Below are positions 300 to 23,268 of a stretch of 64,000 nt of DNA, one piece after another. The notes beneath the pieces are model-generated. The model made no database searches, was not told the DNA's origin, and saw only the letters and a program-made list of their open reading frames with translations. The stretch is from Escherichia coli (lineage in GTDB: Bacteria > Pseudomonadota > Gammaproteobacteria > Enterobacterales > Enterobacteriaceae). Both the position numbers and the translations under genes were made by a program. Each line of letters starts with the position of its first letter. Position 1 is the first letter of the stretch. The stretch lies in assembly GCA_022969815.1 (NCBI GenBank), contig GCA_022969815.1_4535.1; one strand, given 5' to 3'.

Positions 300-1034
300 T
301 TATGCTCCTGAAGGTTTCAAGGATTCCGCACTTGAGCTTCCGCTCTGAATGTTGCGAACCGTATGGGTGTGGGTATGGAAGCCAATACCATTACCGTCTG
401 TCATCAATCCATTCTGATCAATCTGTAGTCCGTTAATGTTTGCAGACGTGCCTTTGAAAGTCATGACACCACCTGTCAAATCCAGGGTGCCGGAACCGTC
501 TGTCATTGTTATTCCAGAAGGAGTAATATCAATCTTCATTCCTTGGCTATTCCATATAGATATAGTGCCAGAAGGATCGAAAGATGCATACGTGTTTTTG
601 TTATTTGAAATAACTACCTTCTCGGAATCTACTGCTTCTGTTGAATCGGTGCCTGTGGAAATCTTAGGAATAAAGCAAATCGGATATAAACCGCAAGGCT
701 GCATCAATGTAGTCGTTGTGGCTGCTTCTCCAGAAGTTTGCATTGCATTCGAAGGATCTCGTTCAGAGAAAATAACAACACCAATATCACCGGATTTAAT
801 AGGGAAGGAGATACGCCCTGTACCTCCTCCGTTAACCATAAAAGGAACATCGTGGAAGGTTGGATAGTCGATAGAATCTTCTTCTGATCGCGTATTCTTC
901 ACAATGGATTCCAATGTCAGTGTTTTTGCACCGTAGTTAACACCTGTAACTCGCACTGGTAATGAGGTATGCACCTCTGCCAGTTGTTCTGTCATCATGC
1001 CACGCATTGCTGTGACAAAGTTCAAAGCATCCAT
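300..1034 (-). CDS. baseplate central spike protein (gpV-like), putative
   Basis: 244-aa ORF, AGGAAGG RBS, start overlaps stop of upstream gene; Gly/Thr/Ser-rich C-terminal half typical of spike proteins; position directly upstream of gp25-like gene. Confidence 0.35.
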   Translation of the reverse strand: MDALNFVTAMRGMMTEQLAEVHTSLPVRVTGVNYGAKTLTLESIVKNTRSEEDSIDYPTFHDVPFMVNGGGTGRISFPIKSGDIGVVIFSERDPSNAMQTSGEAATTTTLMQPCGLYPICFIPKISTGTDSTEAVDSEKVVISNNKNTYASFDPSGTISIWNSQGMKIDITPSGITMTDGSGTLDLTGGVMTFKGTSANINGLQIDQNGLMTDGNGIGFHTHTHTVRNIQSGSSSAESLKPSGA

Positions 1035-2047
1035 TATTTACCTTCCTTCGTCATAATTGCAGATACAGATACACACTCAACTTCTGTCACCCACTCGCTA
1101 CCTTCCTTGTCCCCGTGATGCGATACAGATACCACTTTAAATGGACCATCATAATCGCGGCTCTTGAGCCAAATGGTTTTTTCAGGTAAGATTGCACCAT
1201 TCATCTGGCATTTGAACTTCACACCGTCTGTAGGTTTCTTGGCTTTCTTAGAAGCTTTAGTCACCTTCTTGGCAGGTTTGATATCGTTGTGGAATGGTTC
1301 TGGGCTTCCTATCAACCCTGTTTCAGGACTGATGTAGGCGCTTCTTGCGTTGGACATTTGAGAACGAGGTGTAACATAAACAGACCCATCTTGAATGGAC
1401 ACGTTATGATCAATACTCTTACAAATGTGTTCCAGGTAGTGTGAAGTATTTCCACACATCGCTGTCGCAGAAGAAAGGGTCTGATCATTATCAATATGAA
1501 TGTTACCTTCTGTTGTCCCAAGATCCTTAACAAGATCTGCAACAACACGTTTTACTTTCGTTCCTTTAGGGTAGCTACGACTGGTACGGGCTTCAGAGAT
1601 GTTGATACCCCCGTCCAGACAATGGAGAACAGTTTTACGATCGACGCTATCAAACGTATCACTTACCCACTGAATTGTACCCTTGAAAATCATAACCAAT
1701 TCTTGCCCTTCGTATCCAACTGCTAAAGCTACTGCCAGGTTGTTACGAATGCCTCGGTTGATGTAGTTTACTGTGTCATCCGACAGGTTGTAAATAGTAA
1801 TCTCCGCCTGGTTAGGATCTTTGTTATTATCTTTCTTGATATTGAAAGTAATTTGATGATGTTCAAGTAGATACAAATTAGAAGAAGATTTTGTAGTGCT
1901 TCCCAATTTAGTATCCAAATCTACTGTTGATTTAAAGGATGAGTTGCTTGTCCTTTTCTGCACGGTATTCGTTGCCGTACCAATCAACAGTTTATATGCC
2001 CTGTTCAGATTGGGAACAGGGGCTTTTGTATATTCTCTTTCTGCCAT
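1034..2047 (-). CDS. baseplate hub-like protein (P2 gpD / Mu gp44-like), putative
   Basis: 337-aa ORF in tail/baseplate block between tape measure and spike; assignment by synteny only. Confidence 0.3.
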   Translation of the reverse strand: MAEREYTKAPVPNLNRAYKLLIGTATNTVQKRTSNSSFKSTVDLDTKLGSTTKSSSNLYLLEHHQITFNIKKDNNKDPNQAEITIYNLSDDTVNYINRGIRNNLAVALAVGYEGQELVMIFKGTIQWVSDTFDSVDRKTVLHCLDGGINISEARTSRSYPKGTKVKRVVADLVKDLGTTEGNIHIDNDQTLSSATAMCGNTSHYLEHICKSIDHNVSIQDGSVYVTPRSQMSNARSAYISPETGLIGSPEPFHNDIKPAKKVTKASKKAKKPTDGVKFKCQMNGAILPEKTIWLKSRDYDGPFKVVSVSHHGDKEGSEWVTEVECVSVSAIMTKEGK

Positions 2048-2065
2048 ACAATCTCCCCTTAACTA

Positions 2066-2479
2066 TTAAGCTTGGTTCGATAGATTATCTATGTAAACCA
2101 AAACAAAACGTTTTTCAATTCCTGTTGTTGTGTAACCAGGACGACCATTAATCTTCACCGTGTCAATCATATAAAGCTGTCCGTCTGGAACGCCTTCAAG
2201 ATATTTGTACGGTTTCAACAGATCGAGTCCGTTGGTTATCTTAAACGTTACACTTGGTTCATCTCCTGACAAACCTATAAGACACTGCCAGGCTTCATCA
2301 CGAGTATTCCAGCGTAAACGTATGTCATAATCCACACCATCCAATGTTACGGTGTAGGTTTGGTCTGGATACTCTTCAGTTTTTAAATACCAGGCGAAGT
2401 AATCAGAACGGTCTTCCAAGAAGACAGCCTTGTATCCAGAGTTTGTTGTGCTTCGTGTTGCTTTAGAGTAAGTTGCCAC
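2066..2479 (-). CDS. hypothetical tail-associated protein
   Basis: 137-aa ORF co-oriented and tightly packed in tail gene block. Confidence 0.4.
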   Translation of the reverse strand: MATYSKATRSTTNSGYKAVFLEDRSDYFAWYLKTEEYPDQTYTVTLDGVDYDIRLRWNTRDEAWQCLIGLSGDEPSVTFKITNGLDLLKPYKYLEGVPDGQLYMIDTVKINGRPGYTTTGIEKRFVLVYIDNLSNQA

Positions 2480-2481
2480 GA

Positions 2482-3189
2482 TTAACCTCCGTTATTCGAC
2501 GGTGTGTTGGTATCCCTTGCAGCATCCCTGTTGATCGGGTTGTCAACTTTAGCTCCGCCAGTTGGCGCTTTGCTCTTAACTTCACCACCAGTAGATTTGT
2601 TCGGAGCGGTCTTCACAGCTATCGCGTTAGTTGTTGCAGTGCTCACCAGACGAATCTGTTCCAGTTCCAGATTAAATTGCATAGCAAACTCTGAACGATA
2701 TTCGTAAGTGTAACCTTTCAGGATCACGTTCTCGAAAGTACGGTGTTCTGTCAATAGAACTATCGGTTGACGAGCATCAAAAATCTGATCCAAATACTCA
2801 ATTGCTTGAGAGATACGTGTTCCATTAACACCTGCACTGTAAAGCTGATCACGCATCAAACGTACAGGCGTTTCTGTAATAACACCTGTCAATTTAAAAG
2901 TGTTGTTGTTTATTTTGACGTTATCACTCACTGTACTACCTGATTCAACAGGGAAGCTTGTGATATCGGCTGAACGAGTTACTCCAACTTCCGGTGCGGA
3001 GTCGAAAGTAATCGCCATAAAGTTTTGTATGTATTGATCACTTGAGCTATTGTAAACACTGGCTAAGATACAAAAACCGTTATCACCTTTCACCGTGGAG
3101 GCGGAGTTATTCGTATTTTGTGTTGAGTTCACCTCTTGCTCGGATTTGTAGACGGCTCTTACCGACTGTTGTGGAGTCATTGCTGCCAT
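2482..3189 (-). CDS. hypothetical tail protein (first gene downstream of tape measure)
   Basis: ORF 2482..3216 begins with a TTG; ATG at 3189 (MAAMTPQQ...) preferred as start; synteny. Confidence 0.4.
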   Translation of the reverse strand: MAAMTPQQSVRAVYKSEQEVNSTQNTNNSASTVKGDNGFCILASVYNSSSDQYIQNFMAITFDSAPEVGVTRSADITSFPVESGSTVSDNVKINNNTFKLTGVITETPVRLMRDQLYSAGVNGTRISQAIEYLDQIFDARQPIVLLTEHRTFENVILKGYTYEYRSEFAMQFNLELEQIRLVSTATTNAIAVKTAPNKSTGGEVKSKAPTGGAKVDNPINRDAARDTNTPSNNGG

Positions 3190-3346
3190 GATAACCTCAT
3201 AGTAATGGTAATGCAAAGAGGAAGATGCAAGATCTTCCCATATTGATTATAATACCACAAATGTCGCCGTTATGTCAATGTAAAAATAATCCTTGACTAC
3301 CGTGATCCGCCTTGCTACACTGTATTTATTAACTAAGGAGGAAATT

Positions 3347-4360
3347 ATGGGCGTGATTAAAGGTTGGGACATTCAGAAGAAAGAATGTGAAGAAGTGGCA
3401 AGACCAGGTATTACTGTTCTTGGATTTGTTGAACCGTGGAATGGTGCACATACTAAACTGATGCTGAAATGTGAGAAGCATGGAGAATGGAATACAACCT
3501 CCATCAACAACTTCAAAAAGAATGGTTCTGGTTGTAATGGTTGTCGAGCAGATATATGTGGTGCGAGAGCAGAAGGGAATAGTTTTGCAAGTAAAAATGC
3601 TATCTCAGATGAGCAACACATTAAGGATTTCTTGGCTACCGGATTGTTTGCAGAGGGGACGACTTTCGTAAACACAGGGGTGAAAACAAAAGCTAAGAAC
3701 GATTGTTTCTGGAAAGTAACTTGTCCTGTTTGTGCGGTAGACGAATACTCCAAAGCAGGATTAGGAGATGGATCTTTTGAAGCCAGAACTTCGCATATGA
3801 AACGGGGTCAAATCCCTTGTCGTTGCTCTCCTCGGCATATCTACTCTAAAGATCAGTGGATGTTTAGATTTCAGTTAATGTGTGAAGAAAAAGGTTATAC
3901 TTTTGTCAAGGCCATTTATGAAGGGGAAGCATACTCTCACGGAGATGTTGAATACACCTGTCCAGAACACGGCTCGCAACGCATGACTGTGAAGAACCTC
4001 ATGTCAGGTAAAGGTTGTCCAGAGTGTGCCAATAAAACGCAACAGTTCTGTTATATTAATGAAGTGTACGATGAAGATAATAATCTCTGTGCTCTTAAAT
4101 TTGGAATTGCCAATGATGCTGAACGTAGGATCAAAGGTCAGAATTCGAAGAATGCTTTCATAATGAAACAGAAAGTTGTCTACTTCTTTGATGATATCAA
4201 GTCGTGCCGAGCAGCGGAGAGGGAGTGTTTGAAGCTGTTGGAGTGCGGTGTTGTGAATAAATTTCAGTTGAAGGATGGACACACAGAAACAACACACCTT
4301 TCAAACTACACCAAGATTGTCGATATCTTTGAAGAATTTGGAGGGATGTTACAGAAATGA
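3347..4360 (+). CDS. zinc-ribbon repeat protein with C-terminal T5orf172/GIY-YIG-like segment; possible free-standing homing-endonuclease-like gene
   Basis: AAGGAGG RBS before ATG at 3347; three repeats of C-x-x-H-G...G-x-G-C-x-x-C; C-terminal LCALKFGIANDAERRIKGQ resembles GIY-YIG-like core; only plus-strand gene inside the minus-strand virion module. Confidence 0.4.
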   Translation: MGVIKGWDIQKKECEEVARPGITVLGFVEPWNGAHTKLMLKCEKHGEWNTTSINNFKKNGSGCNGCRADICGARAEGNSFASKNAISDEQHIKDFLATGLFAEGTTFVNTGVKTKAKNDCFWKVTCPVCAVDEYSKAGLGDGSFEARTSHMKRGQIPCRCSPRHIYSKDQWMFRFQLMCEEKGYTFVKAIYEGEAYSHGDVEYTCPEHGSQRMTVKNLMSGKGCPECANKTQQFCYINEVYDEDNNLCALKFGIANDAERRIKGQNSKNAFIMKQKVVYFFDDIKSCRAAERECLKLLECGVVNKFQLKDGHTETTHLSNYTKIVDIFEEFGGMLQK

Positions 4361-4388
4361 AAAAAGGGGCCGAAGCCCCTTTCTTTTA
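4361..4388. terminator. bidirectional rho-independent terminator
   Basis: AGGGGCCGAAGCCCCT hairpin flanked by A-run upstream and T-run downstream, between convergent genes. Confidence 0.6.
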
Positions 4389-5174
4389 GTTGCTGTTTGA
4401 CTGTCCACTTAACGTCTGCAAAGTCAGGCTCTGCATGAACGATTCAGAAGAAGCTTTAGCATTGAAATCAATGTAATCGGAAAGACGAGAAACATCACTT
4501 TGTAATGTCAAGGCAACTTCCGGTGTCAACGTAATGTTGAAGGTCGGGTTTGTCTGGTACTGCATAGCTTTAGATTGGAAATTCTGTGCGTCTTGACGAA
4601 TAGATTCTCCGGTAAACGTATAATTGTTTGCCGCAGATCCTGATCCATCTTTCTCAAAATATCCCACAACCTTATCCCAAATAGAAACACCTTCATCATT
4701 TTTGGAAGTGAGTCCATCTGAAACCGCCGCAAAAGGGTTAAAGGTTCTGTTCGCCATATCCCACACACTGGCATCTTTTCCTGTAGCTGCATAAATGAAA
4801 CCGAAGTTCTCGCGCATGAAGCTATCCAACCCTGTAAAGATGTTCAGGAACATGGTTGCAGTTTTGGCTGTGTTGACAGTTAACTTACCCATCTCTTCAC
4901 CCAAATCTTTCGCTACCTTATCCAACATTTTTACGTTGTCCAACCAGGACTCGTCTTTAGGTATTGCGTTCATAAATCCTTCCAGGAAATAGTTCTGCAT
5001 ACCTTGCCCGACCAAGCCTACCGTGGCAGTCAAGCGTGTGTACTCTTTAGAAGCTTCCATTTGCTCATTGGTCAACGCAGCACCAGTACGTTGAAGCATA
5101 CGGAGGGTTTCTTGGAAGCCTTCTCCGTTCTTGCTAAACATACGTTGGTAATGCATGAGGTCGTCACCAAGGTT
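4386..5174 (-). CDS. tail tape measure protein, exon 2 (3' exon; 5' boundary modelled)
   Basis: Reading frame of ORF 4386..5156 stays open upstream to about 5182; helix-rich sequence continuous in character with exon 1; modelled exon start at 5174 (NLGDDLMHYQ...). Confidence 0.5.
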   Translation of the reverse strand, partial: NLGDDLMHYQRMFSKNGEGFQETLRMLQRTGAALTNEQMEASKEYTRLTATVGLVGQGMQNYFLEGFMNAIPKDESWLDNVKMLDKVAKDLGEEMGKLTVNTAKTATMFLNIFTGLDSFMRENFGFIYAATGKDASVWDMANRTFNPFAAVSDGLTSKNDEGVSIWDKVVGYFEKDGSGSAANNYTFTGESIRQDAQNFQSKAMQYQTNPTFNITLTPEVALTLQSDVSRLSDYIDFNAKASSESFMQSLTLQTLSGQSNSN

Positions 5175-5529
5175 CTCAAGGCTTTGATTTTAAAGGAGTT
5201 TTTGTTAGTAACTCCCCCAGTTCTAACTTCGAACTGCTGCAACTTTCATTGCAGGAAAGACTATATCTTCATCTACGTGAGATGCTTCGCACTTCGCCCC
5301 ACTTGGGGCTACTCTACTCGCTTCCGTATCACTACGTGCTTTCGATAGTCGTTGAACTTTACTCTCGGTGAGAGTCTTAGCTGCTGATTACCCATTGTAC
5401 CATCTTGACAATTTTCAAGCATTCACGCCTGGCGTTGCCGCCTACGTTGTAGCTTGTCAAGCTTTAGGGAGTTCCAGCAATTCACGAAGTTTTCATTACC
5501 TTATCGCTAAGGTACGGCCCCTGTTAAGA
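5175..5529 (-). mobile_element. group I intron (ORF-less, subgroup IA-like) interrupting tape measure gene; boundaries approximate (+/-15 nt)
   Basis: Minus-strand RNA carries the conserved core elements in canonical order: P AAUUGCUGGAA (plus 5472-5482), Q AAUCAGCAGC (5380-5389), R GUUCAACGACUAUCGA (5342-5357), S AAGAUAUAGUCU (5258-5269), then P9-like hairpins; no ORF in the 355 nt. Confidence 0.7.
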
Positions 5530-6690
5530 AAGGCGACCAATCTGTGCCGAGTTCATGCCACGACGCTCACCTTCATTCACAGTTGCCTGTATGAAAGCTA
5601 ATGGATCGTTCTGCATGTGTTTAATTTGTGAAGGGTTCCAACCGAACATGTTCATGATATCGTTGATACCGTTATCACCCCCACGCCATTTTCCTTTTTT
5701 CTCATCCCATTCAGCAGCCATCATCGAGTTACCCAAACGTTCACGAACGTCTTTAAGGTTATCGATTGACTTAATAATGTTTGCCGAGTCAACACCGTTC
5801 TGTTCACCCCAAGCAGTCATTGTCATAATGGCGTTAGCGTTTGCCTGAACGTTCTCTGCACCACGACCTATGAACTTGATACGATCGTTAGCAGTTTGTA
5901 ACGTATTACCTACAACAGAACCACCTGCAAACAGTCCTGCACCAATCATGGATGAAACCATCATGCGAGGATTAAGGCCCAAAGCGCCATCTCTCATTTG
6001 CGAGTATTGACGATCTTTATCTCGGCGTTGCTGTGCCAGTTCACGTTTATGGTTACGCTCAATATCACGTAGCTCTTTATCACGCATACGCTGACGTTGT
6101 TTGGCTTCTGCTTCCAATTCACGACGAACTCGACGACGACCACGTACTTCATCTTCGATATCTTTTACTTTCTCTCGGTGAGATCGACGAAGATTATCAA
6201 GCTGGTGGGCCAGTGTCTGGTTCATACGTTGAAGAGTGATATCTCCACGTTTGTACGATTCTACAGAAGCATCCATGATTTGTTTGGCTTGGCGTTGCGC
6301 ATCTAAGGAAGCTTTGGTATACTGCATACCACGCTTTTCAAAGTTCTCCATACGGAGATTGCCTAAATCATTACGACGAGCCTGTAGCTCGGCAGCGCGT
6401 TCTTCTGGAGTTTTCTTTCCTGGTTTAGCTGGACGACCAGGACCGGAGGTAGTTCCACCACCTTTTGGAGTAGGAGGGGGAGCAGGGCGAGCAGGGAAAG
6501 TCTGCGCTTTACGCATTTCTCTTTCGATCTCTTTCATCTGCTGCCTAAACTTACTCATGTTTAAGGTGGGCTGTATTCTTTCAGCGAACTTTTTAACACT
6601 CTCTACAGAATCTTTGGCTTCTTTGAGACTGTTCTTGTCCACCTTAAATGTGACTACGTTACTGATTTTAGCCGCGTTTATATCTAACAA
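5530..6690 (-). CDS. tail tape measure protein, exon 1 (5' exon; 3' boundary modelled)
   Basis: TTG start at 6690 with GAGGA RBS; charged coiled-coil-like sequence with Pro/Gly-rich linker; unspliced frame hits a stop at 5524-5526 just inside the intron. Confidence 0.5.
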
Positions 6691-6705
6691 AGTATTTTCC
6701 TCATG

Positions 6706-7044
6706 TTAGTGGATCATTTTCTTAAACATGTCTTGCATTTGAGTAGCGTTCTCTTGTTGCTTTCTCTTTATTGAAGTGTCTTTGGTGTACAGAGCTTCAA
6801 TATATTCCTCATAAGTGAGGTACTCGTACATCCCCAATAGATAATCCACCCCGTATTGATCCAGGGTGGAGCGTGTTTCCGAGGTATTCTTCACGACCTT
6901 GCAGAGAATGATCTCATACCACTTCAACGTAAGGGTCTTCTCTGCTGTTTCCATCGCATGACGAATGGCTGGGCTTAGTTCGTTGCCAGATCCTGAACTG
7001 CTTGGAACTGGGTCAACAGTTTTCCGAAACCTCGTTTGAAAAAA
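6706..7044 (-). CDS. tail assembly chaperone, -1 frameshift extension ORF (GT-like product when fused to upstream ORF)
   Basis: Frame of ORF 6706..6954 is the -1 frame of ORF 6975..7457 and stays open back to the slippery heptamer at 7038-7044. Confidence 0.45.
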   Translation of the reverse strand, partial: FFQTRFRKTVDPVPSSSGSGNELSPAIRHAMETAEKTLTLKWYEIILCKVVKNTSETRSTLDQYGVDYLLGMYEYLTYEEYIEALYTKDTSIKRKQQENATQMQDMFKKMIH

Positions 7045-7457
7045 GGGCCGTAGTTCACCTCAAGAACTTTTGCTGTCAAGTCGAGGACAAGTTCTGGGTG
7101 AGCAAAGAAGAGTTCGTCGAAGTTATCAGATACGTTGTGACCTGCTTCGGTATATACTTCATCTAAGATCTTACGGAGGAACACAGTAAGGTTCTTCTCT
7201 TCAAGACCAGAGAACAATTGAATAAGTGCCATTGCAATACGAGATTCCAGATCTTCTTCAGCCGACATAAGGGCAGTATTGTACATGGTCATAGGTACAG
7301 CTAAAACGCTACCGAGTTCTGGGATACGCTCGAAGACCTTTGAAGGACTCCATTTCAGAATACGGAAGGTTACAAAACGGGTTTCATCTAAGTAGATTTT
7401 TACGATTTCTTCTGGACGTGCATATTGTTTGATAGTATCATCTTGTTGTTCGGACAT
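6975..7457 (-). CDS. tail assembly chaperone (G-like), putative
   Basis: 160-aa acidic ORF between tail tube and tape measure genes; contains slippery site near its 3' end. Confidence 0.45.
   Translation of the reverse strand: MSEQQDDTIKQYARPEEIVKIYLDETRFVTFRILKWSPSKVFERIPELGSVLAVPMTMYNTALMSAEEDLESRIAMALIQLFSGLEEKNLTVFLRKILDEVYTEAGHNVSDNFDELFFAHPELVLDLTAKVLEVNYGPFFKRGFGKLLTQFQAVQDLATN
7038..7044 (-). promoter_or_regulatory. -1 programmed ribosomal frameshift slippery heptamer U_UUU_UUC
   Basis: Minus-strand sequence GGC CCU UUU UUC AAA in the 0 frame of the chaperone gene; -1 frame open for about 110 further codons. Confidence 0.45.
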
Positions 7458-7479
7458 AGTTTCCTCTCTTTTTAGTTAA

Positions 7480-7503
7480 ATAAAAAGGGCATTTCTGCCC
7501 TTT
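7480..7503 (-). terminator. rho-independent terminator after tail tube gene
   Basis: GGGCATTTCTGCCC hairpin followed on minus strand by T-run. Confidence 0.5.
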
Positions 7504-7508
7504 CGTTA

Positions 7509-7988
7509 TTATTGAATGGTCAGTGCGGAGATAGAGTTAAGAACACTCATACCTACACCAACTTCATTACGTAACAGGCTTGCATCTTTCAGACCGATAA
7601 CCCATTGGTTCTCTGTAATCATTTCGCCCATAGTGTCTTCAGGTTGAGATTGAATCCAACCAATGGTGCTAATGTAGTAACCACGAGGATCTTCCAGGTA
7701 AACACTGAATGCTACTTGACGAGTAGAATACATTGTTTGAGCATAAGTTGCCAAAACTTCGTTTGCCGGAGATGTACGTTGCAGAGAAATAGTCATGGTG
7801 CCGAGACGGTTGCGGCTAAGAGCCAGAGAAACATCGCCATCAGTACCAGCATATGGGTTAATAATATCGTTGGCTTTTGCAATTACAATTTTAGTGTCGG
7901 TTGCAAAACCCCACGGCTCCCATCCACCCAGGGACAGAACGATTTGGGAAGGATCATAGGCCATTACGCCAGTAAGCATTTTATCCAA
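7509..7988 (-). CDS. tail tube protein, putative
   Basis: 159-aa ORF immediately downstream of sheath-sized gene and followed by terminator; synteny. Confidence 0.45.
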   Translation of the reverse strand: MDKMLTGVMAYDPSQIVLSLGGWEPWGFATDTKIVIAKANDIINPYAGTDGDVSLALSRNRLGTMTISLQRTSPANEVLATYAQTMYSTRQVAFSVYLEDPRGYYISTIGWIQSQPEDTMGEMITENQWVIGLKDASLLRNEVGVGMSVLNSISALTIQ

Positions 7989-8034
7989 TTTGGATCTCCT
8001 TTAGGGATAAGGCGAGGTTGCCCCCGCCAAATTA

Positions 8035-9408
8035 TTAGTTTGCAGTACGGTTGGTCAGGACGTGAACCTGAACCTTAACGTAATGGAAGAATCCTGCGTA
8101 AACGTATTCAATCTTCATGCCGTCAACCAGACGCTGATTAATCTGCGAATCAGTCATGTCAGCACGAGAAGGAAGGTAAACGATAGGCTTCAGGTCAACA
8201 CGCAGTCCAGTTTCTTCTGAAACAACCACTTCGTTAGAAATAGAGCCATTCAGAATACCAACTTGGATCGGGTTAGCCAGAACCGCTTGTTTAATCAGAG
8301 CCAGACCATTGGAAGTAGCACGAACACCACCACCCAACATTGACTGCTGTTTGAACAGAGTGAACAGAGATTCTTCGGTACGAGCTTTGAACCACAGAGC
8401 GTGAACTACGTAGTCAGCAAAGAAACCGTTAACCATCAGACCATCGCGGTAGAACAGAGTTGCGTGTTCTTTACGGTAGATGTTACCATTCTGTTGAACA
8501 ATGTTATTTTCCGCAGTCTGACCGAGTTTCTCGATTTCAACTCCAACCAGAGTTTTACCATGCAGAGTCGTAGTACCAGGCTGTGCAGAGCAGATAGAAC
8601 CAACAACAGCAGCTTCTGGGAATACAGAGTCTGCGTCGCTCATCCACAGAGCAAAACAGGTATTGACATAGCCAAGGTCATTTAAACGCTCAAGAACGTT
8701 GTCTTCGGCTTTAGTAGTGATACCAACGTCTGAACTGGAGAAGAAGTATACTTTGTCATTCTCTTCTACCCAAGCAGCTACGTCAAGAATATCTTCAACA
8801 GCATGGGAGTCAGACAGAACCCAGAACCAGCTACTATCAATATCGTGCAGAGCGGAGATATCTTCGGTAATACCGTTAGCGTAGACGGTTTCTTTAGCGA
8901 AGCCGCTTGCATCCAGAGAAGCGTATTTGCCTACAACTGGAGAAACAGTGATCACAGCGCCATCGTTAGCAACGGTAAACAGACCACCGTAAACTACGTC
9001 TGCATTGATCATTTCTGTCAGACCAACAACGATTTCTTGTGCTGTTGCAGTGTCGTCAGCAATGAATTTGAAATCTTTCTTGTTCTTGCCTTCTTTGATA
9101 GTGATAACATATGTTGCACTATCTTCAACTGCTGGGGTCAGGGTAAAGTTTGTTACTTCACGCTTACCAACAATCACTTGACTTGGTGCGAATAATCCGT
9201 TAAACAGTTTAACTGCCATGATATAGGCTGGATCATTAACACCGTAACCCGCTTCCAGAAGTGCGTCAGAAGAGGTGTAATATTCAATCGCGTTACCAGT
9301 GACAGTCTGACCAGTAAGGATCAGGGGAATGTCAAACTGGGTTTCACGGATTGATGTAGCTCCGTACAGTAAAGTTACGGTTGCTACCTTTTCACGAAAA
9401 GTTGCCAT
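8035..9408 (-). CDS. tail sheath protein, putative
   Basis: 457-aa ORF upstream of tube gene; size and position typical of contractile-tail sheath. Confidence 0.5.
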   Translation of the reverse strand: MATFREKVATVTLLYGATSIRETQFDIPLILTGQTVTGNAIEYYTSSDALLEAGYGVNDPAYIMAVKLFNGLFAPSQVIVGKREVTNFTLTPAVEDSATYVITIKEGKNKKDFKFIADDTATAQEIVVGLTEMINADVVYGGLFTVANDGAVITVSPVVGKYASLDASGFAKETVYANGITEDISALHDIDSSWFWVLSDSHAVEDILDVAAWVEENDKVYFFSSSDVGITTKAEDNVLERLNDLGYVNTCFALWMSDADSVFPEAAVVGSICSAQPGTTTLHGKTLVGVEIEKLGQTAENNIVQQNGNIYRKEHATLFYRDGLMVNGFFADYVVHALWFKARTEESLFTLFKQQSMLGGGVRATSNGLALIKQAVLANPIQVGILNGSISNEVVVSEETGLRVDLKPIVYLPSRADMTDSQINQRLVDGMKIEYVYAGFFHYVKVQVHVLTNRTAN

Positions 9409-9441
9409 TTATGCTCCTGTTAGAAACTTATTCCAATGAAT

Positions 9442-10080
9442 TTATTCGTTGGGGTTGTTAAATAATGATCCATCATCAGTTACTGGTGAGTATTCGCCAT
9501 TAACCTCATGAACTACGTAAATTCTATCCAGAGTTAAATCCAGAGGTGTGGGATCATTGTAGCTATCTCTGAATGATCGAATATGCATGTTGACAGCCTC
9601 TATAGGGGTTGTCATAATATCCTCAATACTCATACGAGTGTTGAAGGTCATAATCATACGCGCTCTAACTTCAGTCTTATCTCCATCCAGAACTGTGTTT
9701 GCCTGTGTGATATTTGTTGCTGACAGGAAACCCATCCCTTTGGAATAGAGATGCTTGTATTTTAATTCCTCTGCACCACGTAGAGCAGCCAGAACATAGC
9801 TCAACAGAGTAGTGGGTCTTCCACGGAAAGCCATGAGTTCAATCTCATAGGTATTGTCCATCTCGTAGGAAAACATATCCTGCTCTATTTTGCCTCGGTA
9901 AGACCACCCGCCAGAATCACTGGAGGTGATAATACGTAGTGCCAGGTATGGATTGGTTGGTTGGACGAACGGTTTGTCCATCACGTAAATTGGCAATCCA
10001 GTTAATTCTTGAAGGAAACTACCTATGTTAAGATAGATAGCATTCTCATACGCTTCGATTTGTTCGTAGATATTAGCCAA
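9442..10080 (-). CDS. hypothetical virion protein (head-tail region)
   Basis: 212-aa ORF in co-directional late block. Confidence 0.45.
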   Translation of the reverse strand: MANIYEQIEAYENAIYLNIGSFLQELTGLPIYVMDKPFVQPTNPYLALRIITSSDSGGWSYRGKIEQDMFSYEMDNTYEIELMAFRGRPTTLLSYVLAALRGAEELKYKHLYSKGMGFLSATNITQANTVLDGDKTEVRARMIMTFNTRMSIEDIMTTPIEAVNMHIRSFRDSYNDPTPLDLTLDRIYVVHEVNGEYSPVTDDGSLFNNPNE

Positions 10081-10522
10081 AGTTTCCTCCCTCTTGATCG
10101 TAATCCCACGTATTGTTTTGATCGTCTAATATGGCGACACAATGATGATGGGTTAGGAAAGTAGTTCGAGTCCAATCTTTAAGGGAGTACACAGAATACC
10201 ACTGACCATCAATCAAGATTTGGTCGGATAGTTGAGAGGTTCCTTGTTGGATGCCTCGCATTTCTGTTTTAGTCCAGAAACTATATTGCGCCTTTGATCT
10301 GTACCCTTCGGGCAGTGCTTTTAGAGTTTTTCCAGAGATTGGTTGCAGACTTGCAGCCGCTATCTCAAACTCTTCATATTCTACGGTACTACCCATATTG
10401 GCGATAACAGAACCTACAGCTTCTTTGTAGACACGTCTACGCCCTTGATATGAGGTAAGATCAAGGAGAGTGAATTGATCAAGTAACACCTGTATCTCCT
10501 TTTTAGTATACATCAAAAACAA
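10073..10522 (-). CDS. hypothetical virion protein
   Basis: 149-aa ORF, overlapping stop/start with neighbour. Confidence 0.45.
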   Translation of the reverse strand: MFLMYTKKEIQVLLDQFTLLDLTSYQGRRRVYKEAVGSVIANMGSTVEYEEFEIAAASLQPISGKTLKALPEGYRSKAQYSFWTKTEMRGIQQGTSQLSDQILIDGQWYSVYSLKDWTRTTFLTHHHCVAILDDQNNTWDYDQEGGNFG

Positions 10523-10534
10523 AATTTATGCAAG

Positions 10535-11023
10535 TTATTTTTTAGACTTGCCTTTTGTGATCTTCGAGTCTATCTCGTTAATCATGTGCCCTGTGTCAAT
10601 CAAAGTATGCGTAGAGTAATTCCCTTTATCACGACGAATCTTAATTGTCACCGGAGAAAGTGCTCTATATCGTTGGGAAGCTATTGCTCTTGCTATTCCT
10701 TCACGAGAAGCTTTCGCTATCGGCTCAAAAACTCCGAGTCCTTTATTTCGCATAAGGTATTGAACAAAAACATTCGGTAATAGCTTGGCTATCTCTTTAC
10801 TGGAAATCACAGCACCGTCAGTCATAAACGGACGGGCTGGAATATTATTTGTTTCGTTACCATATTGCTGGATAGCAGCTATCGCTGGAATAGTGAGATC
10901 TGATTCAGGGTGTCTCTTGTTTTCAAGGAAACCAGCTTCAATTTCCACATTCTCTAATACCATCATCTTTTTAATGATTGTATCCCAGTCTGTGTCTGTA
11001 CCTGGTAAGATCTCACTTTTCAT
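10535..11023 (-). CDS. hypothetical virion morphogenesis protein
   Basis: 162-aa ORF in late block. Confidence 0.45.
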   Translation of the reverse strand: MKSEILPGTDTDWDTIIKKMMVLENVEIEAGFLENKRHPESDLTIPAIAAIQQYGNETNNIPARPFMTDGAVISSKEIAKLLPNVFVQYLMRNKGLGVFEPIAKASREGIARAIASQRYRALSPVTIKIRRDKGNYSTHTLIDTGHMINEIDSKITKGKSKK

Positions 11024-11571
11024 TATTTGTCCCTACGATAATATGATACAGGTCCGTAGTTTCGCAGATAGTTTACGTTACGTGTTTTACGATCTACACT
11101 GGCAACATTACCTAAACCATTCACAGAGTTAGGATCGCTGTTGACACGATCGATTTCACGAGCATCTACACCGCCAATCAGAACACGACTTGTTGCACCA
11201 CGTCCAGCGGTACACCCTGGAATAACCATTAAGCCGTTCAGGTAGTTGTTGTAGATATCTTCCCAAGGAGATTTGTATTCTACTTGACCGTTACTAAATT
11301 TAACTTCTACTTCCACTTCGCCCATCTTTTCACGGCGGGACATTGCACCACCACTTTGACTGTTGTTATTTAAAACATCAGTGTTCCACAGGTATTCAAG
11401 AACAGAAATTAAACTGTTCCATAGAACAGCACACTTATTAGAGTCGGCGTTACCAATAATATCGATCCATGTCTGGATAATCTGAATCAACACTGCGTCT
11501 GGCAAAGTTTCTTGAGACGGATTATAAACAAGGATTCGAACCATTGGTGCCAATTCAGTAGCAATCAGCAT
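11023..11571 (-). CDS. hypothetical virion protein
   Basis: 182-aa ORF in late block. Confidence 0.45.
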   Translation of the reverse strand: MLIATELAPMVRILVYNPSQETLPDAVLIQIIQTWIDIIGNADSNKCAVLWNSLISVLEYLWNTDVLNNNSQSGGAMSRREKMGEVEVEVKFSNGQVEYKSPWEDIYNNYLNGLMVIPGCTAGRGATSRVLIGGVDAREIDRVNSDPNSVNGLGNVASVDRKTRNVNYLRNYGPVSYYRRDK

Positions 11572-11580
11572 AACTTCTCC

Positions 11581-11925
11581 TTACTTTTTACGGAGTGATC
11601 GTTTCTTGGCTGGTGAATCTACTGCTTCAACTTTCAGAACTTCCTGTTCGACTTCGATCTCTTTGTAATCTTCGAAGCTGACAAGGAAATAGCCCATGTG
11701 CTCTTCGCTACTAAACGGATGAACCAACAGACCAGTTTCTTCACGCAGACGTTGTAAGAAATGAATAAAATTACCACCTAAAGCAACACGACCATCTTTC
11801 AGATAGAAAGACATTGGAGGCGCTTGAGTGAGAGTCTTCTCTGCATCCAGATTGCTCACGAGCTTAGAGAAGTCCTGAATCATTTCGTGGTAGCTGAAGT
11901 AACGTTTTAATTGTGGGTTTGACAT
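11581..11925 (-). CDS. hypothetical head-associated protein
   Basis: 114-aa ORF immediately downstream of capsid terminator. Confidence 0.45.
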   Translation of the reverse strand: MSNPQLKRYFSYHEMIQDFSKLVSNLDAEKTLTQAPPMSFYLKDGRVALGGNFIHFLQRLREETGLLVHPFSSEEHMGYFLVSFEDYKEIEVEQEVLKVEAVDSPAKKRSLRKK

Positions 11926-11957
11926 AACAATCTCCTCGGTATATAGTGTTCATATAA

Positions 11958-11990
11958 CAAAAAAGGCTCGCCCATCACGGACGAGCCTCT
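11958..11990 (-). terminator. rho-independent terminator after major capsid gene
   Basis: AGGCTCGCCCATCACGGACGAGCCT hairpin followed on minus strand by TTTTT. Confidence 0.55.
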
Positions 11991-12007
11991 TTTAGAACAG
12001 AGTTCTA

Positions 12008-13006
12008 TTAAGCAGTGGTCAGACGAACAATCAGTTCTGGGCGAACGTTAACTGCCAGAAGAGAGAATTCAGACTGAAGACTTACAGTACGGTGCTCACT
12101 GATCATGAACGTGTACAGTTCACGAGCAACAGTGTTAGCCAGTTCTGGAGTATCCGCAGGAGCGTAGTGCGCCTGGAACATATCCGCGATACCCATAGGC
12201 AGAACATATGCTTCACCAGCAGGGATGTTACCGTGAATATCTTCGATGTAGGTTACGCCGTTCCATTCGAACACCTGAACGTCCATGTTACCGTTCAGAC
12301 GGTCACGCAGGAGGTTAGGAGTGCCCTGGAAGTACTGGTAAGCCTGACGAACGAACGGAGAGTTAACCAGAGAAGCGAAGAACTCACGAGAGCACAGAGC
12401 AACGATACGAGTAGCGGTAGAACCGTCTTGTTTTTCGTCGATGATGTATGCACGAGCTTCTTGCTCAACGGTAGCCGCTGGAGAAACAGTGGTAGAAGCG
12501 AAATCTACAGGAACTGATTTCTGGGTAGCGCCCCACTCGGTGTACCAGTTGTACGCAGAGTTAGCAGCGCCGCCGCCAGTGTATGCACGACCCATTACTG
12601 CTTCAGCAAAGATCTTCTCTTTGGTTTTTGCAGCATCGCGCAGAATCTGCGTCATATAACGGTTAACTACTTCTGCTTCAGTACGCAGAGAGTCGTTGAT
12701 ACCAGCCATAGCGAAGCTACGGAAAGACTGGATATCTTGAGCTTTGATGTTCTTATCCAGTGGGAAGAATGGGATACGGAACACTTTGACTTCTGGAGTA
12801 TCCATAGTCAGGAAGTTACGCTCACCACCACGTTCACGGGCAGGAATCAGACCATCTTGAGTTTTTTGTTTGCCGATTTCAACAACGGTAGTTGCATGGT
12901 ACTGTACATCAAACAGACCCAGGCTGGCAATCAGTGTATCAGGAGTATCCTGAAGTTCGATCATTGGGCTGAAATCAACAACCTGATCTAAAATTACTGC
13001 TGGCAT
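12008..13006 (-). CDS. major capsid protein, putative
   Basis: 332-aa ORF followed by a strong terminator, downstream of portal/scaffold-like genes; Ala/Gly/Thr-rich composition. Confidence 0.55.
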   Translation of the reverse strand: MPAVILDQVVDFSPMIELQDTPDTLIASLGLFDVQYHATTVVEIGKQKTQDGLIPARERGGERNFLTMDTPEVKVFRIPFFPLDKNIKAQDIQSFRSFAMAGINDSLRTEAEVVNRYMTQILRDAAKTKEKIFAEAVMGRAYTGGGAANSAYNWYTEWGATQKSVPVDFASTTVSPAATVEQEARAYIIDEKQDGSTATRIVALCSREFFASLVNSPFVRQAYQYFQGTPNLLRDRLNGNMDVQVFEWNGVTYIEDIHGNIPAGEAYVLPMGIADMFQAHYAPADTPELANTVARELYTFMISEHRTVSLQSEFSLLAVNVRPELIVRLTTA

Positions 13007-13028
13007 TATATTAATCTCCTATCAAAAA

Positions 13029-13421
13029 TTAAGAAGTGAAAACGACTTTTTCAGTCAGTTTCAGATCACGAGTTTCCAGTGCTGCTACGCCAGCGTCGTC
13101 AATCAGATTACCGTTGCTATAGAATACAGCAAAGCGGTTCAGAGTCAGGTCGCGTACACCAACAACGGCGGTGAAAGTGTCACCAACTGCAACATCATCG
13201 ATACCGAACAGAGCATCAGTCCACAGCAGAACTTTAGCAGCATCAGCGGCAGCGGCAGCTTCGGTGTTGTCAGCTTTCAGTACGGAACCAATTTTCATGG
13301 TTGCGGTTTTAACCAGGTTTACTTCGCGTACACAGTGTCCGAGGTCAGAGCTAAAAACTCCACCCAGAACCAGGTGTCCGAATTCCTGGCGAGAGTTAGA
13401 TAAAGTAATTCCTTTAGCCAT
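13029..13421 (-). CDS. hypothetical head protein (decoration or assembly)
   Basis: 130-aa ORF between scaffold-like and capsid genes. Confidence 0.4.
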   Translation of the reverse strand: MAKGITLSNSRQEFGHLVLGGVFSSDLGHCVREVNLVKTATMKIGSVLKADNTEAAAAADAAKVLLWTDALFGIDDVAVGDTFTAVVGVRDLTLNRFAVFYSNGNLIDDAGVAALETRDLKLTEKVVFTS

Positions 13422-13440
13422 TTAATTTAATCTCCTAAGA

Positions 13441-14559
13441 TTATTGTTTCTGGGCTTTTTTGAGTTCGGCAGCTTTCTGACGAATCAGTTCAGATGCAGA
13501 TTTGGCAACAACTTCCACATTGGCAACATCAGCGCCTTGTTCTTTACCAAACTCTTTCTTAACTGCTTCAACTTCTGCACGGGCTTTTTCGAATGCGTTA
13601 ACAACAGTTTCAGCGATCTCTTTATTATCGATCAGGTATTTAACCAGTGCTTCAACTTTTTCTTCTTCTACGAAAGCGTAAGACTTAACAACAGTGGTGT
13701 ACTCTTCTTCGATACGAGCCAGTTCAGCTTTACGAAGTTCTTCTGCTGCGAGTTCTGCTTTAGCGATCTTTTCCTGTGCTGCCAGTTCTGCTTGTTCACG
13801 GGCTTCTGTCGCTGCTTTTTCTACAGCTTCAGCAATCTGTGCTTTCATCAGGTCTTGGAATTCGGCAGATTTCAGGAATTCTTCTTTGTTAATATTTTCC
13901 AAAGGTAATTCTCCTTTATTGATTCCAGTTGTGTTTGCAGATTTGTCACCTGCGGGGTTAGCCTCTGCATCCACAGAGTTCTTATTGGTTTGAGCATTAT
14001 GTGCTTTCACCAGATAATCTTTAACTTGATCGTGTTTCAGAGCACCTTTAATAAGATCGCCAAGAGCATCTTCGATCAGGTCTTCAAAGAAATCGACGGA
14101 AACCATAACGTCACCATCAACAACTTGATAATCGGTAGTACGTACAACAGGTTTAGCAACTTCTTCGAGTTCAACAACTAAACCGTTCAAAGTAAAGTTT
14201 ACGGCAAACATACCGTGATCAGAACAGAAGATTGCAACGTTAGCATCAAAGTCTACATCTGCCAGCCAAACCCAGTCCCAACATGTGGAGAACTTTTCGT
14301 TTACAGCGTTGGCGATGCGGTCCATTACTTGCTGAATGTAACCTTTACGTAATTCAGTAACGTCTTCACCCATTTTAGCCAGAGCTTCGATTTTCTCGAA
14401 GGTCACTTCAGGAGAGCCGTCAGATTTAAAAAGCAGTGGGGTATTGTAACCAGACGCTGCACCACCTTGAAAATCGAAAGTGTATGCGATATGTGCGCCC
14501 AGAGTTTCTTCCGTAGCTTTACCCGAAAAGTCTACGTTAGTAAGATATGTATTTGCCAC
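13441..14559 (-). CDS. scaffolding-like protein, putative
   Basis: 372-aa ORF with long C-terminal Ala/Glu/Lys-rich coiled-coil-like region. Confidence 0.4.
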   Translation of the reverse strand: MANTYLTNVDFSGKATEETLGAHIAYTFDFQGGAASGYNTPLLFKSDGSPEVTFEKIEALAKMGEDVTELRKGYIQQVMDRIANAVNEKFSTCWDWVWLADVDFDANVAIFCSDHGMFAVNFTLNGLVVELEEVAKPVVRTTDYQVVDGDVMVSVDFFEDLIEDALGDLIKGALKHDQVKDYLVKAHNAQTNKNSVDAEANPAGDKSANTTGINKGELPLENINKEEFLKSAEFQDLMKAQIAEAVEKAATEAREQAELAAQEKIAKAELAAEELRKAELARIEEEYTTVVKSYAFVEEEKVEALVKYLIDNKEIAETVVNAFEKARAEVEAVKKEFGKEQGADVANVEVVAKSASELIRQKAAELKKAQKQ

Positions 14560-14561
14560 AA

Positions 14562-15041
14562 TTAGTCCTTCTTGACTTTCACGCCCATCGCACCTATACT
14601 CAAACCTTTAAGAACGCCGTCCTTACGAGCTTGATATAGTTCAGGGTCGTTGAATTGGATTTTAACGAGGGGAGTTCCTTCCACAACGAGTTCGTCACCA
14701 ATGTAACAATCAACTTCGTTCACCCAAGCTTTAACTGGGGCAAATTTGTCTGTGTTCTTCATGTGACCAAGATTACCACTTACGTTAGTAATATTCTCAT
14801 TGAAGTTGTCTACCATCTTCCTGATTTCCATATCAGACATACGCTCACCGTGGAGGTCGTCTTTTTCAGGTGGACAATACAATACCTCAATAACCTGCAT
14901 TTGCTCTTCGTCAAACTTATTATGTTTGATTACTGTTTGAGGTTGTTGAGGGGGTGTAGAATCTTGTTGGGATGGGGTTGATTCTTTCATACCGCTGAAC
15001 GATTTGAAGAGTTCCCAGAGTGTATCTTTATTAAGTTCCAT
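14562..15041 (-). CDS. hypothetical head morphogenesis protein
   Basis: 159-aa ORF between portal and scaffold-like genes. Confidence 0.4.
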   Translation of the reverse strand: MELNKDTLWELFKSFSGMKESTPSQQDSTPPQQPQTVIKHNKFDEEQMQVIEVLYCPPEKDDLHGERMSDMEIRKMVDNFNENITNVSGNLGHMKNTDKFAPVKAWVNEVDCYIGDELVVEGTPLVKIQFNDPELYQARKDGVLKGLSIGAMGVKVKKD

Positions 15042-15132
15042 ATGAACCTCTTAAAAACAAATATCCCATAAATCTTAGTCTACAGGATATTCGTCATTTT
15101 GTCAATACCTAAAATCAAAAAAGTTTAATTTT

Positions 15133-16698: not shown

Positions 16699-16801
16699 TT
16701 TCTTCCTCCGGCACTGTGCTTAAAGATCAATAGGGCAAGGGTTAAATAAATTAACCCGCCCATAAAGTCATTGTACACTTTAAAGTAACTTTTGTCAACA
16801 A

Positions 16802-18880: not shown

Positions 18881-18889
18881 TTCTCCTCC

Positions 18890-19231
18890 TTACTTACTGA
18901 TAATCCCTTTCTCTTGCAGAGCCTTAATGTAGTTTTGTAAACCGATCACTTTGTTTCGGTCTTGACTCCAGAGAACATTATTTGTGGTCCCGTTATCAAC
19001 TACTTCAGAACGAGAAACACCTTTAGCAATTTGTTGATCTGTGTACGGTACAGGTTCACTTACACCTTCCATTAAAGAAGAGTCTGGTCCTCTGACTTCC
19101 TGCACTGCTACAGCTTTACATTCGTCAATTAGAATCGGGGAGGCTTTTGTTGAGGATGTGCAACCCGTCATCATTAGGGCCGAAGCAAGACATAGACCCA
19201 GTAGTAGTTTTTGCATAATTTGTTTTCTCAT
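18890..19231 (-). CDS. o-spanin (outer-membrane lipoprotein, Rz1-like), putative
   Basis: Signal peptide ending in lipobox-like ALMMTGC; gene overlaps 3' end of i-spanin gene in another frame. Confidence 0.45.
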   Translation of the reverse strand: MRKQIMQKLLLGLCLASALMMTGCTSSTKASPILIDECKAVAVQEVRGPDSSLMEGVSEPVPYTDQQIAKGVSRSEVVDNGTTNNVLWSQDRNKVIGLQNYIKALQEKGIISK

Positions 19232-19532
19232 CGTTTACCTTCTTCTCCTTGTTTGCTAAATCTTTTTTCAATTTAGCATTCTTTTCGGAGAGGGAAGCTA
19301 TTTGGTTGTTAAGTGCCAGACGTTCATCATCGGCTTTCTTTTGAAGAACATCGAAGTCTTGTTTAGCTTTTGCTTGTTGTTGCTGATAGATAGTTACTTG
19401 ATGTTGTTCTCCTGCTGCGTAACCATTATCATACAGAGCCTTTCCGCCGAAGTACAAACCAGCTAAAAGTGCAACTAACAGAAGAATAACGTAAAACCAC
19501 TTACTCTTCAGAATCATTGTTATCAGTGTCAT
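19125..19532 (-). CDS. i-spanin (Rz-like), putative
   Basis: N-terminal transmembrane helix WFYVILLLVALLAGLYF followed by coiled-coil-like periplasmic domain; overlapped by lipoprotein gene. Confidence 0.5.
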   Translation of the reverse strand: MTLITMILKSKWFYVILLLVALLAGLYFGGKALYDNGYAAGEQHQVTIYQQQQAKAKQDFDVLQKKADDERLALNNQIASLSEKNAKLKKDLANKEKKVNDEKTNYAKTTTGSMSCFGPNDDGLHILNKSLPDSN

Positions 19533-19799
19533 CTTTAAATCTCACTTTAGGTAAGGATGGAGAGTTATTCACTACCTTCTTCACTTCCATCGGTTTGGCT
19601 TCCGCAAGAATCTCTTCCCACGTCTTCTCGATCATCATCTAATTCGTCCTCAAGATCCCATTGACGGGAGTAATCATTTTTCCTGTCACGATGGACAGAA
19701 GCTTTGTTAAAATCATTCTTAACTACAAAGTTGCGCATATTTTATCCTCCTCAATATTGATCTTATCACAAAACATATACACAATGCAAGCCCTAAAAA

Positions 19800-19830
19800 G
19801 AAAAAAGCCCCTAACCTTTCGGAAAGGGGT
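19800..19830 (-). terminator. rho-independent terminator
   Basis: CCCCTAACCTTTCGGAAAGGGG hairpin followed on minus strand by T-run. Confidence 0.4.
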
Positions 19831-21647: not shown

Positions 21648-21651
21648 ATTA

Positions 21652-23260: not shown

Positions 23261-23268
23261 TGTTATGT

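Follow-up and report, generated by a model that had tools for sequence, protein, structure and literature searches.

The closest described relatives of the gene analysed here are homing endonuclease genes (HEGs) of phages that combine zinc fingers with a T5orf172 domain. The CapR zinc finger was defined by Netter et al. in 2021 as the DNA-binding domain of putative homing endonucleases of ICP1, in which T5orf172 forms the C-terminal part (PMC8096241). Barth et al. (2023) then surveyed 229 T5orf172 HEGs and found CapR, DUF723 or DUF4379 in 87% of them, often repeated as "beads on a string" (PMC10448857). Such HEGs cluster beside essential genes and at recombination boundaries, and the tape measure gene (TMP) is frequently interrupted; at ICP1 terL, a T5orf172 HEG lies beside an intron without an ORF, an arrangement that has been discussed as collaborative homing (PMC10448857). 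The kind of gene reported here has been described before; this member lies in the tail module of a coliphage.

Other homing systems also serve as points of comparison. F-CphI with psbA in a cyanophage is reportedly a prototype of the collaborative-homing arrangement (Zeng, Bonocora and Shub 2009), and the same is said of the DNA polymerase introns of T3/T7-like phages (Bonocora and Shub 2009). The free-standing enzyme MobE of T4 reportedly cuts near its own gene and thereby co-converts the nearby, immobile nrdB intron (Wilson and Edgell 2009). In the "intronless homing" of Seg and Mob enzymes, repair co-converts neighbouring markers.

The window, by which we mean the whole stretch of 64,000 nucleotides that was analysed, carries the virion module of an Escherichia coli myovirus near the phiWec179/188 group, with 92-97% identity over the matched parts of the locus. 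This group has been filed by its depositors under Phapecoctavirus, Stephanstirmvirinae. Minus-strand ORFs tile positions 300-19532, and the genes for TMP, tail assembly chaperone, portal and large terminase are among them. The plus-strand gene at 3347-4360 is a real, intact ORF. Its surroundings, in the coordinates of the window, are as follows.

2482..3189, minus strand: Dit-like tail gene that flanks the cassette (Pfam PF21821, E=2.1e-24; annotated with 708 nt in relatives)
3249..3278, minus strand: promoter-like site of the Dit-like gene, TTGACA-18 nt-TATTAT, kept in all relatives including those without the HEG
3290..4341, plus strand: variable cassette of promoter, ribosome-binding site (RBS) and nearly the whole ORF, delimited by blastn and MAFFT against phiWec188 and PsgM04F
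3293..3321, plus strand: candidate sigma-70-like promoter of the cassette from a promoter scan, TTGACT-17 nt-TACACT
3335..3341, plus strand: Shine-Dalgarno sequence AAGGAGG, 5 nt before the ATG of the HEG and kept in all orthologues
3347..4360, plus strand: HEG ORF, with ATG at 3347 and a TGA that ends at 4360, 337 aa, stop-free
4360..4385, no strand assigned: bidirectional terminator-like hairpin, GC-rich, with a terminator-like score on both strands
4386..5181, minus strand: TMP exon 2, whose 3' part (4420-4917) is hypervariable among relatives
5182..5530, minus strand: ORF-less group I intron of 349 nt, with bounds taken from intron-less relatives
5531..6690, minus strand: TMP exon 1, with the start codon placed by the 1956-nt CDS of relatives

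The gene had been introduced as the only plus-strand gene in 21 kb, which is essentially right. The sole other plus-strand ORF that is not overlapped, at 19661-20248, matches no family, and related genomes have been deposited with small minus-strand genes annotated in its place. No paralogue of the HEG was found elsewhere in the window. The cassette is about 1.05 kb long and lies between the promoter of the Dit-like gene and the terminator of TMP, and in relatives it is present or absent at exactly the same site. The gene does have the strong RBS of its own that had been claimed for it. Upstream of this, every orthologous cassette conserves both hexamers of the candidate promoter and the sequence from there to the RBS; the spacer between the hexamers is variable. 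This promoter and that of the Dit-like gene would stand back-to-back, with their -35 boxes 14 nt apart. At the other end, the hairpin lies between the convergent stop codons of the HEG (4358-4360) and TMP (4386-4388) and is common to both genes, as had been proposed for a shared bidirectional terminator; relatives without the HEG also have it.

The neighbouring tape measure gene had been said to contain an ORF-less group I intron, and profile comparison bears this out. The Rfam model Intron_gpI (RF00028) matches positions 5237-5540 on the minus strand over its full length, with 84.6 bits (gathering score 50). Alignment with uninterrupted relatives sets the bounds, under the rule of a U before the 5' splice site and a G as the last base of the intron. 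The predicted splice junction reads GGUCGCCU / CCUUGAG. Splicing is predicted to leave a TMP of 1956 nt and 651 aa, the length of the uninterrupted TMP in phiWec179/188 and in one metagenomic orthologue (L007); more distant intact relatives have 646 aa. The "hypothetical" ORFs at 4386-5156 and 5524-6690 would thus be annotated as one spliced tape measure gene. At 349 nt, the intron is too short for an endonuclease ORF, and it lies some 820 bp from the HEG.

The intron is absent from nine related loci and present in five others (L010, L011, L015, L016 and L019). Among 50,697 phage records, there was no near copy covering at least 80% of it. The longest matches in these records have about 68-73% identity over 52-74% of its length and are to introns of ICP1, AR9/PBS1, SP-15 and W70. 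Between lineages with flanking exons that are 70-81% identical, the intron is 85% identical, and it occurs in two different exon-2 contexts with an intron identity of 97-98%. By these identities, the intron is either mobile or old.

The protein encoded by the HEG consists of three predicted zinc modules followed by a nuclease domain, with the residues given below.

3386..3544, plus strand: CapR zinc module 1, aa 14-66 (PF21817, 43.4 bits alone; predicted ligands C42, H45, C63 and C66)
3623..3829, plus strand: CapR zinc module 2, aa 93-161 (PF21817, 48.3 bits alone; predicted ligands C126, C129, C158 and C160)
3854..4030, plus strand: CapR/DUF723/DUF4379 zinc module 3, aa 170-228 (PF21817, 28.3 bits, and DUF723, 22.0 bits; predicted ligands C205, H208, C224 and C227)
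4046..4321, plus strand: T5orf172 / GIY-YIG nuclease domain, aa 234-325 (Y236, K251-F-G253, R261, E291 and E314)

When the whole protein is scanned with Pfam, the CapR homology domain PF21817 (gathering cut-off 24.2 bits) matches three stretches with a total of 97.8 bits (E=4e-28), and all three modules exceed the cut-off when they are scanned one by one. The DUF4379 and DUF723 zinc fingers of Pfam also match. The preliminary description had seen three C-x-x-H-G...G-x-G-C-x-x-C modules; three there are, but the motif holds literally in two of them only. Modules 1 and 3 have the spacing CxxH-17/15-CxxC, whereas module 2 has CxxC-28-CxC. The latter is of the same type as the CapR motif CxxC...CxC described in PMC8096241. 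In an alignment of 35 homologues, the ligands of all modules are invariant or nearly so, with the exception of H45: C42, C63 and C66 of module 1 and all four ligands of module 3 are invariant, and H45 is the majority residue at its position. The modules are predicted to bind zinc.

The resemblance of the C-terminal segment to T5orf172, also pointed out earlier, is real but weak at the level of sequence. With a cut-off of 20, T5orf172 (PF10544) scores 17.5 bits in the whole protein and a borderline 20.7 bits for the C-terminal 109 aa alone. PHROG 681, "endonuclease", matches with E=1.7e-55 and covers the T5orf172 part too, while the NCBIfam scan of the protein gave no match. A profile search of PDB sequences gave nothing at E<=1, so that a comparison of folds was needed. 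The predicted fold agrees with the assignment, having the beta-beta-alpha-beta-alpha core of GIY-YIG domains. In this model, Y236 lies on strand 1, K251-F-G253 on strand 2, R261 on helix 1 and E291 on helix 2; these residues and E314 are invariant in the 35 homologues, down to 30% identity. An hhalign comparison, which is not significant as a match (E=0.26) and serves for residue placement only, puts E291 opposite E180 of ICP1 Odn, and the E180A mutant of Odn has lost DNA cleavage (PMC8263062). R261 was paired by eye with Odn R148 through the shared motif K-x-G-x3-D-x-E-(K/R)-R, whereas hhalign places it opposite L152.

The ORF is intact in all nine orthologous loci, with 336-337 aa and no frameshift or stop. 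Its dN/dS ratio is about 0.1 (0.04-0.20 among seven orthologues), and the separate halves give 0.05-0.27 where dS is measurable; dS over these loci is saturated. The gene thus encodes a functional protein, and the predicted fold, the invariant Tyr, Arg and Glu and the low dN/dS make it most likely that this is an active nuclease. It is very improbable that the gene is the inactive remnant of a homing endonuclease gene in decay. The sub-threshold Pfam score of T5orf172 in the full-length scan and the lack of the gene in some relatives would fit a relic, but no orthologue has a frameshift or stop, dN/dS is about 0.1 in both halves, and the zinc ligands and the catalytic Tyr, Arg and Glu are conserved. 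The assignment of 3347-4360 to the family of free-standing genes for putative homing endonucleases with zinc fingers and a GIY-YIG-like (T5orf172) domain is well supported.

A tblastn search with the HEG protein found relatives in 403 phage records, including ORF165 of ICP1 (E=2e-17, 29% identity), which is named "putative homing endonuclease" in other ICP1 records. Paralogues that are about 43% identical occur elsewhere in the genomes of Phapecoctavirus and Justusliebigvirus phages; in the Justusliebigvirus phages alia and muut, they sit at an unrelated locus beside an ATPase gene, outside the tail module. One match, to a "tape measure protein" of Klebsiella phage K23PH08C2, was set aside as an unreliable annotation, since the feature as placed in that record yields no translation; the homologue is a separate ORF of 326 aa.

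For the locus itself, we compared the phiWec and PsgM04F isolates, metagenomic orthologues and one contig from a pattern scan; the window is locus L012 of this set. Scans of viral_contigs with peptide patterns of the HEG revealed no relative and, with the intron pattern, nothing; the intron pattern found one short contig in metagenome_contigs (L019). The state of each genome or locus that could be scored for both elements is as follows.

HEG present, intron present: the window (L012), L015, L016, L010, an 18-kb ENA contig (ERZ22666135), L011
HEG present, intron absent: phiWec179/181/186, L007, L008, L009
HEG absent, intron absent: phiWec188, phiWec190, PsgM04F

L019 has the intron but falls short of the HEG locus, and L017 and L018 lack the intron but stop 27 nt past TMP. 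No genome or locus among those compared has the intron without the HEG. Counted as lineages, four have both elements, none has the intron only, four have the HEG only and two have neither. The HEG is thus polymorphic for presence and absence at a fixed site among close relatives.

The preliminary description had tied the gene to the intron, a link that is only partly supported; a dependence of the one on the other is not supported. A free-standing HEG does lie next to a gene with an ORF-less intron, but the two are not always found together: phiWec179/181/186, L007, L008 and L009, which make up four lineages, carry the gene at the same site beside an uninterrupted TMP. It had also been said that the proposal would fall if related genomes had the gene at the same place without any intron and with a conserved non-nuclease function. 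The first of these was found; the second was not, as the Tyr, Arg and Glu of the nuclease domain are invariant.

The same genomes bear on strict collaborative homing, in which the HEG product would cut the intron insertion site, the intron would protect its carrier and both would spread as a unit. Several observations are in its favour. The two elements are neighbours, all six intron-containing contigs that reach the HEG locus have the HEG, and within the closest TMP cluster both elements are either present or absent. The intron is also better conserved between lineages than the neighbouring exons, and there are precedents in ICP1 terL, T3/T7-like phages and cyanophages (PMC10448857). But the insertion site of phiWec179 (HEG, no intron) is identical to that of phiWec188 (neither) from -29 to +14, and that of L007 (HEG, no intron) is identical to that of PsgM04F (neither) from about -44 to +17. 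Since the sites of HEG carriers without the intron match those of phages with the same exon type but no HEG, an enzyme aimed there would cut its own carrier, and strict collaborative homing is therefore improbable. Protection of carriers at the insertion site was not observed, and the HEG alleles of genomes with the intron do not cluster apart from those of genomes without it. Beyond chance, the empty site of the HEG has no motif in common with the insertion site of the intron; the longest shared string has 6 nt, a length reached in 278 of 300 shuffles. Nor is the co-occurrence of the two elements significant (hand-calculated Fisher p ~0.33, about 10 lineages); it is expected from tight linkage alone, and it fits linkage over 820 bp or hitch-hiking by co-conversion. 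On the comparisons made, the intron is not needed to protect carriers of the HEG, homing at the intron site is unlikely, and HEG and intron appear to come and go separately.

Several signs point to mobility of the gene itself. No part of the locus has diverged as far as the HEG. Between the window and L015, for example, the flanks are 95-98% and the intron 97% identical, whereas the HEG is 84-86% identical, and between L008 and L009 the corresponding values are 94-99% for TMP and 70-78% for the HEG, with a dS of 1.28. The two halves of the L015 allele, N-terminal and C-terminal, have different nearest relatives. The 3'-terminal 500 nt of TMP (4420-4917), directly beside the cassette, fall into four types that are only 40-66% identical, and the type switches sharply at 4415 and 4918. 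The switches agree with published work in which HEGs lie at the borders of exchanged segments.

The empty sites are less simple to read. In phages without the HEG, the cassette is replaced by a short, unrelated filler that differs between the two HEG-less lineages and measures about 15 nt if blastn breakpoints are taken and 26-29 nt if the raw sequence is read by eye. After the filler come the final 17-20 nt of the ORF, in which a CAG has become TAG. The HEG-less sites may be deletion scars or ancestral empty sites. Whether the gene was "inserted" here, as had been stated, is uncertain: orthologues hold the site even in lineages that are only about 72% identical, and the HEG-less genomes retain the end of the ORF. 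Where genomes with and without the HEG have a common TMP 3' type, the ~1 kb around the cassette shows only about 1-2% difference; to the left of the cassette, some 300 nt are the same in the window and phiWec188. Such genomes are set apart consistently, and on a large scale, by the insertion junction alone, so a target that spans the empty junction would be the most likely one for the enzyme.

We consider that the best explanation of the locus, to which we give a probability of roughly 0.6, is a free-standing homing-type gene of the CapR-zinc-finger/T5orf172 kind in a self-contained cassette of ~1.05 kb, with the intron as a separate element. In such a mechanism, the three zinc modules would read a long, asymmetric DNA site as beads on a string, and the C-terminal GIY-YIG-type domain would cut the genomes of relatives that infect the same cell and have no cassette, or a different allele of it. 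Repair by recombination with the carrier genome would then copy the cassette together with flanking markers. The group I intron would not be required by the endonuclease and would at most hitch-hike by linkage or co-conversion. Homing of this kind would account for the presence of the cassette in some relatives only, for the mosaic boundaries at its edge and for the divergence of the HEG far above that of its flanks. Several points stand against it. According to the papers of the Seed laboratory, homing by T5orf172 HEGs in general has not been experimentally verified. The long purifying selection at one locus is unlike the classic cycle of invasion, decay and loss, and it may mean a role that benefits the phage. 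The HEG-less genomes, with their remnant of the ORF, may be deletion derivatives and not naive targets.

The second of these points leads to another reading, which we regard as unlikely though worth weighing: the protein could be a domesticated nuclease or DNA-binding protein, retained because it is of use to the phage, which would exclude competing phages or satellites, as Odn does, or would regulate the back-to-back promoters. For promoter regulation, CapR and the autorepression of I-TevI provide models. Consistent with domestication are an ORF that is intact in all nine orthologous loci at a dN/dS of ~0.1 with saturated dS, the retention of the same locus in lineages only ~72% identical, the 14 nt between the candidate cassette promoter and the -35 box of the Dit-like promoter, and CapR and Odn as precedents of co-option in the same family. 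But the invariance of the catalytic residues makes a pure repressor unlikely, the isolates phiWec188/190 and PsgM04F can do without the gene, neither a binding site nor a repeated operator was found, and the greater divergence of HEG alleles than of their flanks fits turnover of alleles.

Equally doubtful, in our view, is a loosely coupled pair, in which the enzyme would cut at or near its own empty site, long tracts of co-conversion would drag along the intron 820 bp away, and purifying selection would keep the enzyme for the advantage that marker exclusion gives its carrier in mixed infections. When the window was compared with phiWec188, no clean tract of co-conversion was seen at the intron; positions 5533-5704 have a somewhat higher density of differences, and the odd one out alternates between the two genomes. 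Mobilisation of the intron in trans by co-conversion is possible. If the pair were coupled in this manner, a T5orf172 HEG would both spread an intron among coliphages and make the neighbouring C-terminus of their TMP hypervariable.

The locus offers a natural series of E. coli phages, filed under Phapecoctavirus, with neither element, with the HEG only and with HEG and intron. The series is partly near-isogenic, and its first two states exist as phiWec isolates. It could be used to test homing by T5orf172 HEGs, mobilisation of an intron in trans and the making of mosaic boundaries in tail genes by HEGs. For annotation, the plus-strand gene may be named CapR/T5orf172 putative homing endonuclease.

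Compared with known systems, the gene is most like the ICP1 genes gp53, gp121, gp130, gp165 and gp174 and T5 orf141/orf172, in which repeated CapR fingers are followed by T5orf172. As in the HEGs of ICP1 and T5, it is free-standing, lies beside an essential virion gene, varies among relatives and sits at a recombination boundary. Unlike these, it belongs to E. coli phages of the Phapecoctavirus type and occupies an intergenic site between Dit and TMP that is not described in the papers of Netter and Barth. It is also stably intact, whereas the HEGs of ICP1 are often frameshifted, and it has about 25-30% identity to the ICP1 members. With ICP1 terL it shares a free-standing HEG beside an essential gene that is split by an ORF-less intron, but here four lineages with the HEG lack the intron and have the same insertion site as HEG-less phages that share their exon type. 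It differs from the T4 systems in that MobE is an HNH enzyme, Seg enzymes are canonical GIY-YIG enzymes and both have other DNA-binding domains, and cleavage by the HEG product is a prediction. Two further proteins each share one half of it: CapR of PLE is a repressor with the zinc-finger DNA-binding domain whose nuclease domain has been lost, and ICP1 Odn (Gp88) has the T5orf172 nuclease, with RepA_N in place of the zinc fingers, and targets the origin of a satellite.

The ORF of the putative homing endonuclease gene (HEG; window 3347-4360, plus strand) is far more diverged from its counterparts in four metagenomic loci (L015, L007, L008 and L009) than are its own flanks, and it is under purifying selection despite this strong divergence. 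For example, L008 and L009, both of which carry the HEG and lack the intron, are 70-78% identical in the HEG (dS 1.28) and 94-99% identical in the tape measure gene (TMP). Within the L015 allele, the nearest relatives of one half are not those of the other, a pattern suggestive of recombination among HEG alleles.

A second variable stretch, with sharp edges at 4415 and 4918, immediately adjoins the HEG cassette:

4420-4917, minus strand: hypervariable TMP segment, C-terminal ~165 codons

Four sequence types of this segment occur among the relatives, with a mutual identity of only 40-66%, whereas members of the close clade share 87-99% identity over the remainder of the TMP. Types A and B each include HEG-carrying as well as HEG-less genomes.

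Two HEG-less phage lineages provide empty sites:

L002 1889-1925: empty HEG site of phiWec188
L003 1883-1920: empty HEG site of PsgM04F

The purine-rich fillers at these sites differ between the two lineages, and one of them contains the direct repeat GAAGGGAGTAT twice. In both lineages the conserved 3' end of the HEG ORF (17-20 nt) comes after the filler, with CAG changed to TAG; the sites may be either deletion scars or ancestral sites. Furthermore, an intron-less relative was assembled twice independently (L017, a contig of SRR10822052, and L018), and both assemblies end 27 nt past the TMP stop codon, a break point that coincides exactly with the HEG junction. Such breaks may reflect a mixture of HEG-carrying and HEG-less populations in the sample.

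PsgM04F (OR584014.1), deposited as a 'Pseudomonas phage' with Pseudomonas coronafaciens as the recorded host, is 93-99% identical to the E. coli phiWec phages in the HEG/TMP locus; this host assignment looks questionable, unless the phage has an unusually wide host range. In the record of Klebsiella phage vB_Kpn_K23PH08C2 (OY757067.1), the feature table is at odds with the sequence itself: translation of the 'tape measure' CDS yields a run of stops, and every CDS bears a pseudo flag. A HEG homologue in this phage (326 aa, ORF 3722-4702) is located in the 'tape measure' region of a Mydovirus tail module.

The group I intron of the window is ~97-98% identical to that of L015 and L016, with mismatches at the first ~15 nt and the last 2-3 nt (window 5518-5530 and 5175-5190 compared with L015 3480-3500 and 3815-3835). 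The exon-2 starts joined to it also differ, being CCTTGAGAAC in the window versus ATTAGAAAAT in L015/L016. In the window, exon-2 UUGAGAA is able to pair with intron nt 1-7 (UUCUUAA), a possible P10 helix. The Arg codon directly 5' of the 5' splice site is CGC, not CGT or CGA, in all intron-containing alleles.

Further features of the window are as follows:

19661-20248, plus strand: 195-aa ORF without an overlapping long minus-strand ORF
21572-24473, minus strand: cluster of 10 tRNA genes (Rfam)
3249-3321, one on each strand: two back-to-back promoter-like sites

The tRNA cluster lies downstream of packaging and lysis genes. The product of the 195-aa ORF has no Pfam or PHROG match; in related genomes, depositors annotated small minus-strand genes (174 and 291 nt) in this region, and an Rz-like spanin lies near them. 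Of the two promoter-like sites, the minus-strand one belongs to the Dit-like tail gene (11/12 consensus matches, extended -10) and the plus-strand one to the HEG. Their -35 boxes are just 14 nt apart, a spacing that would allow the HEG protein, which is predicted to bind DNA, to exert autoregulation or cross-regulation here.
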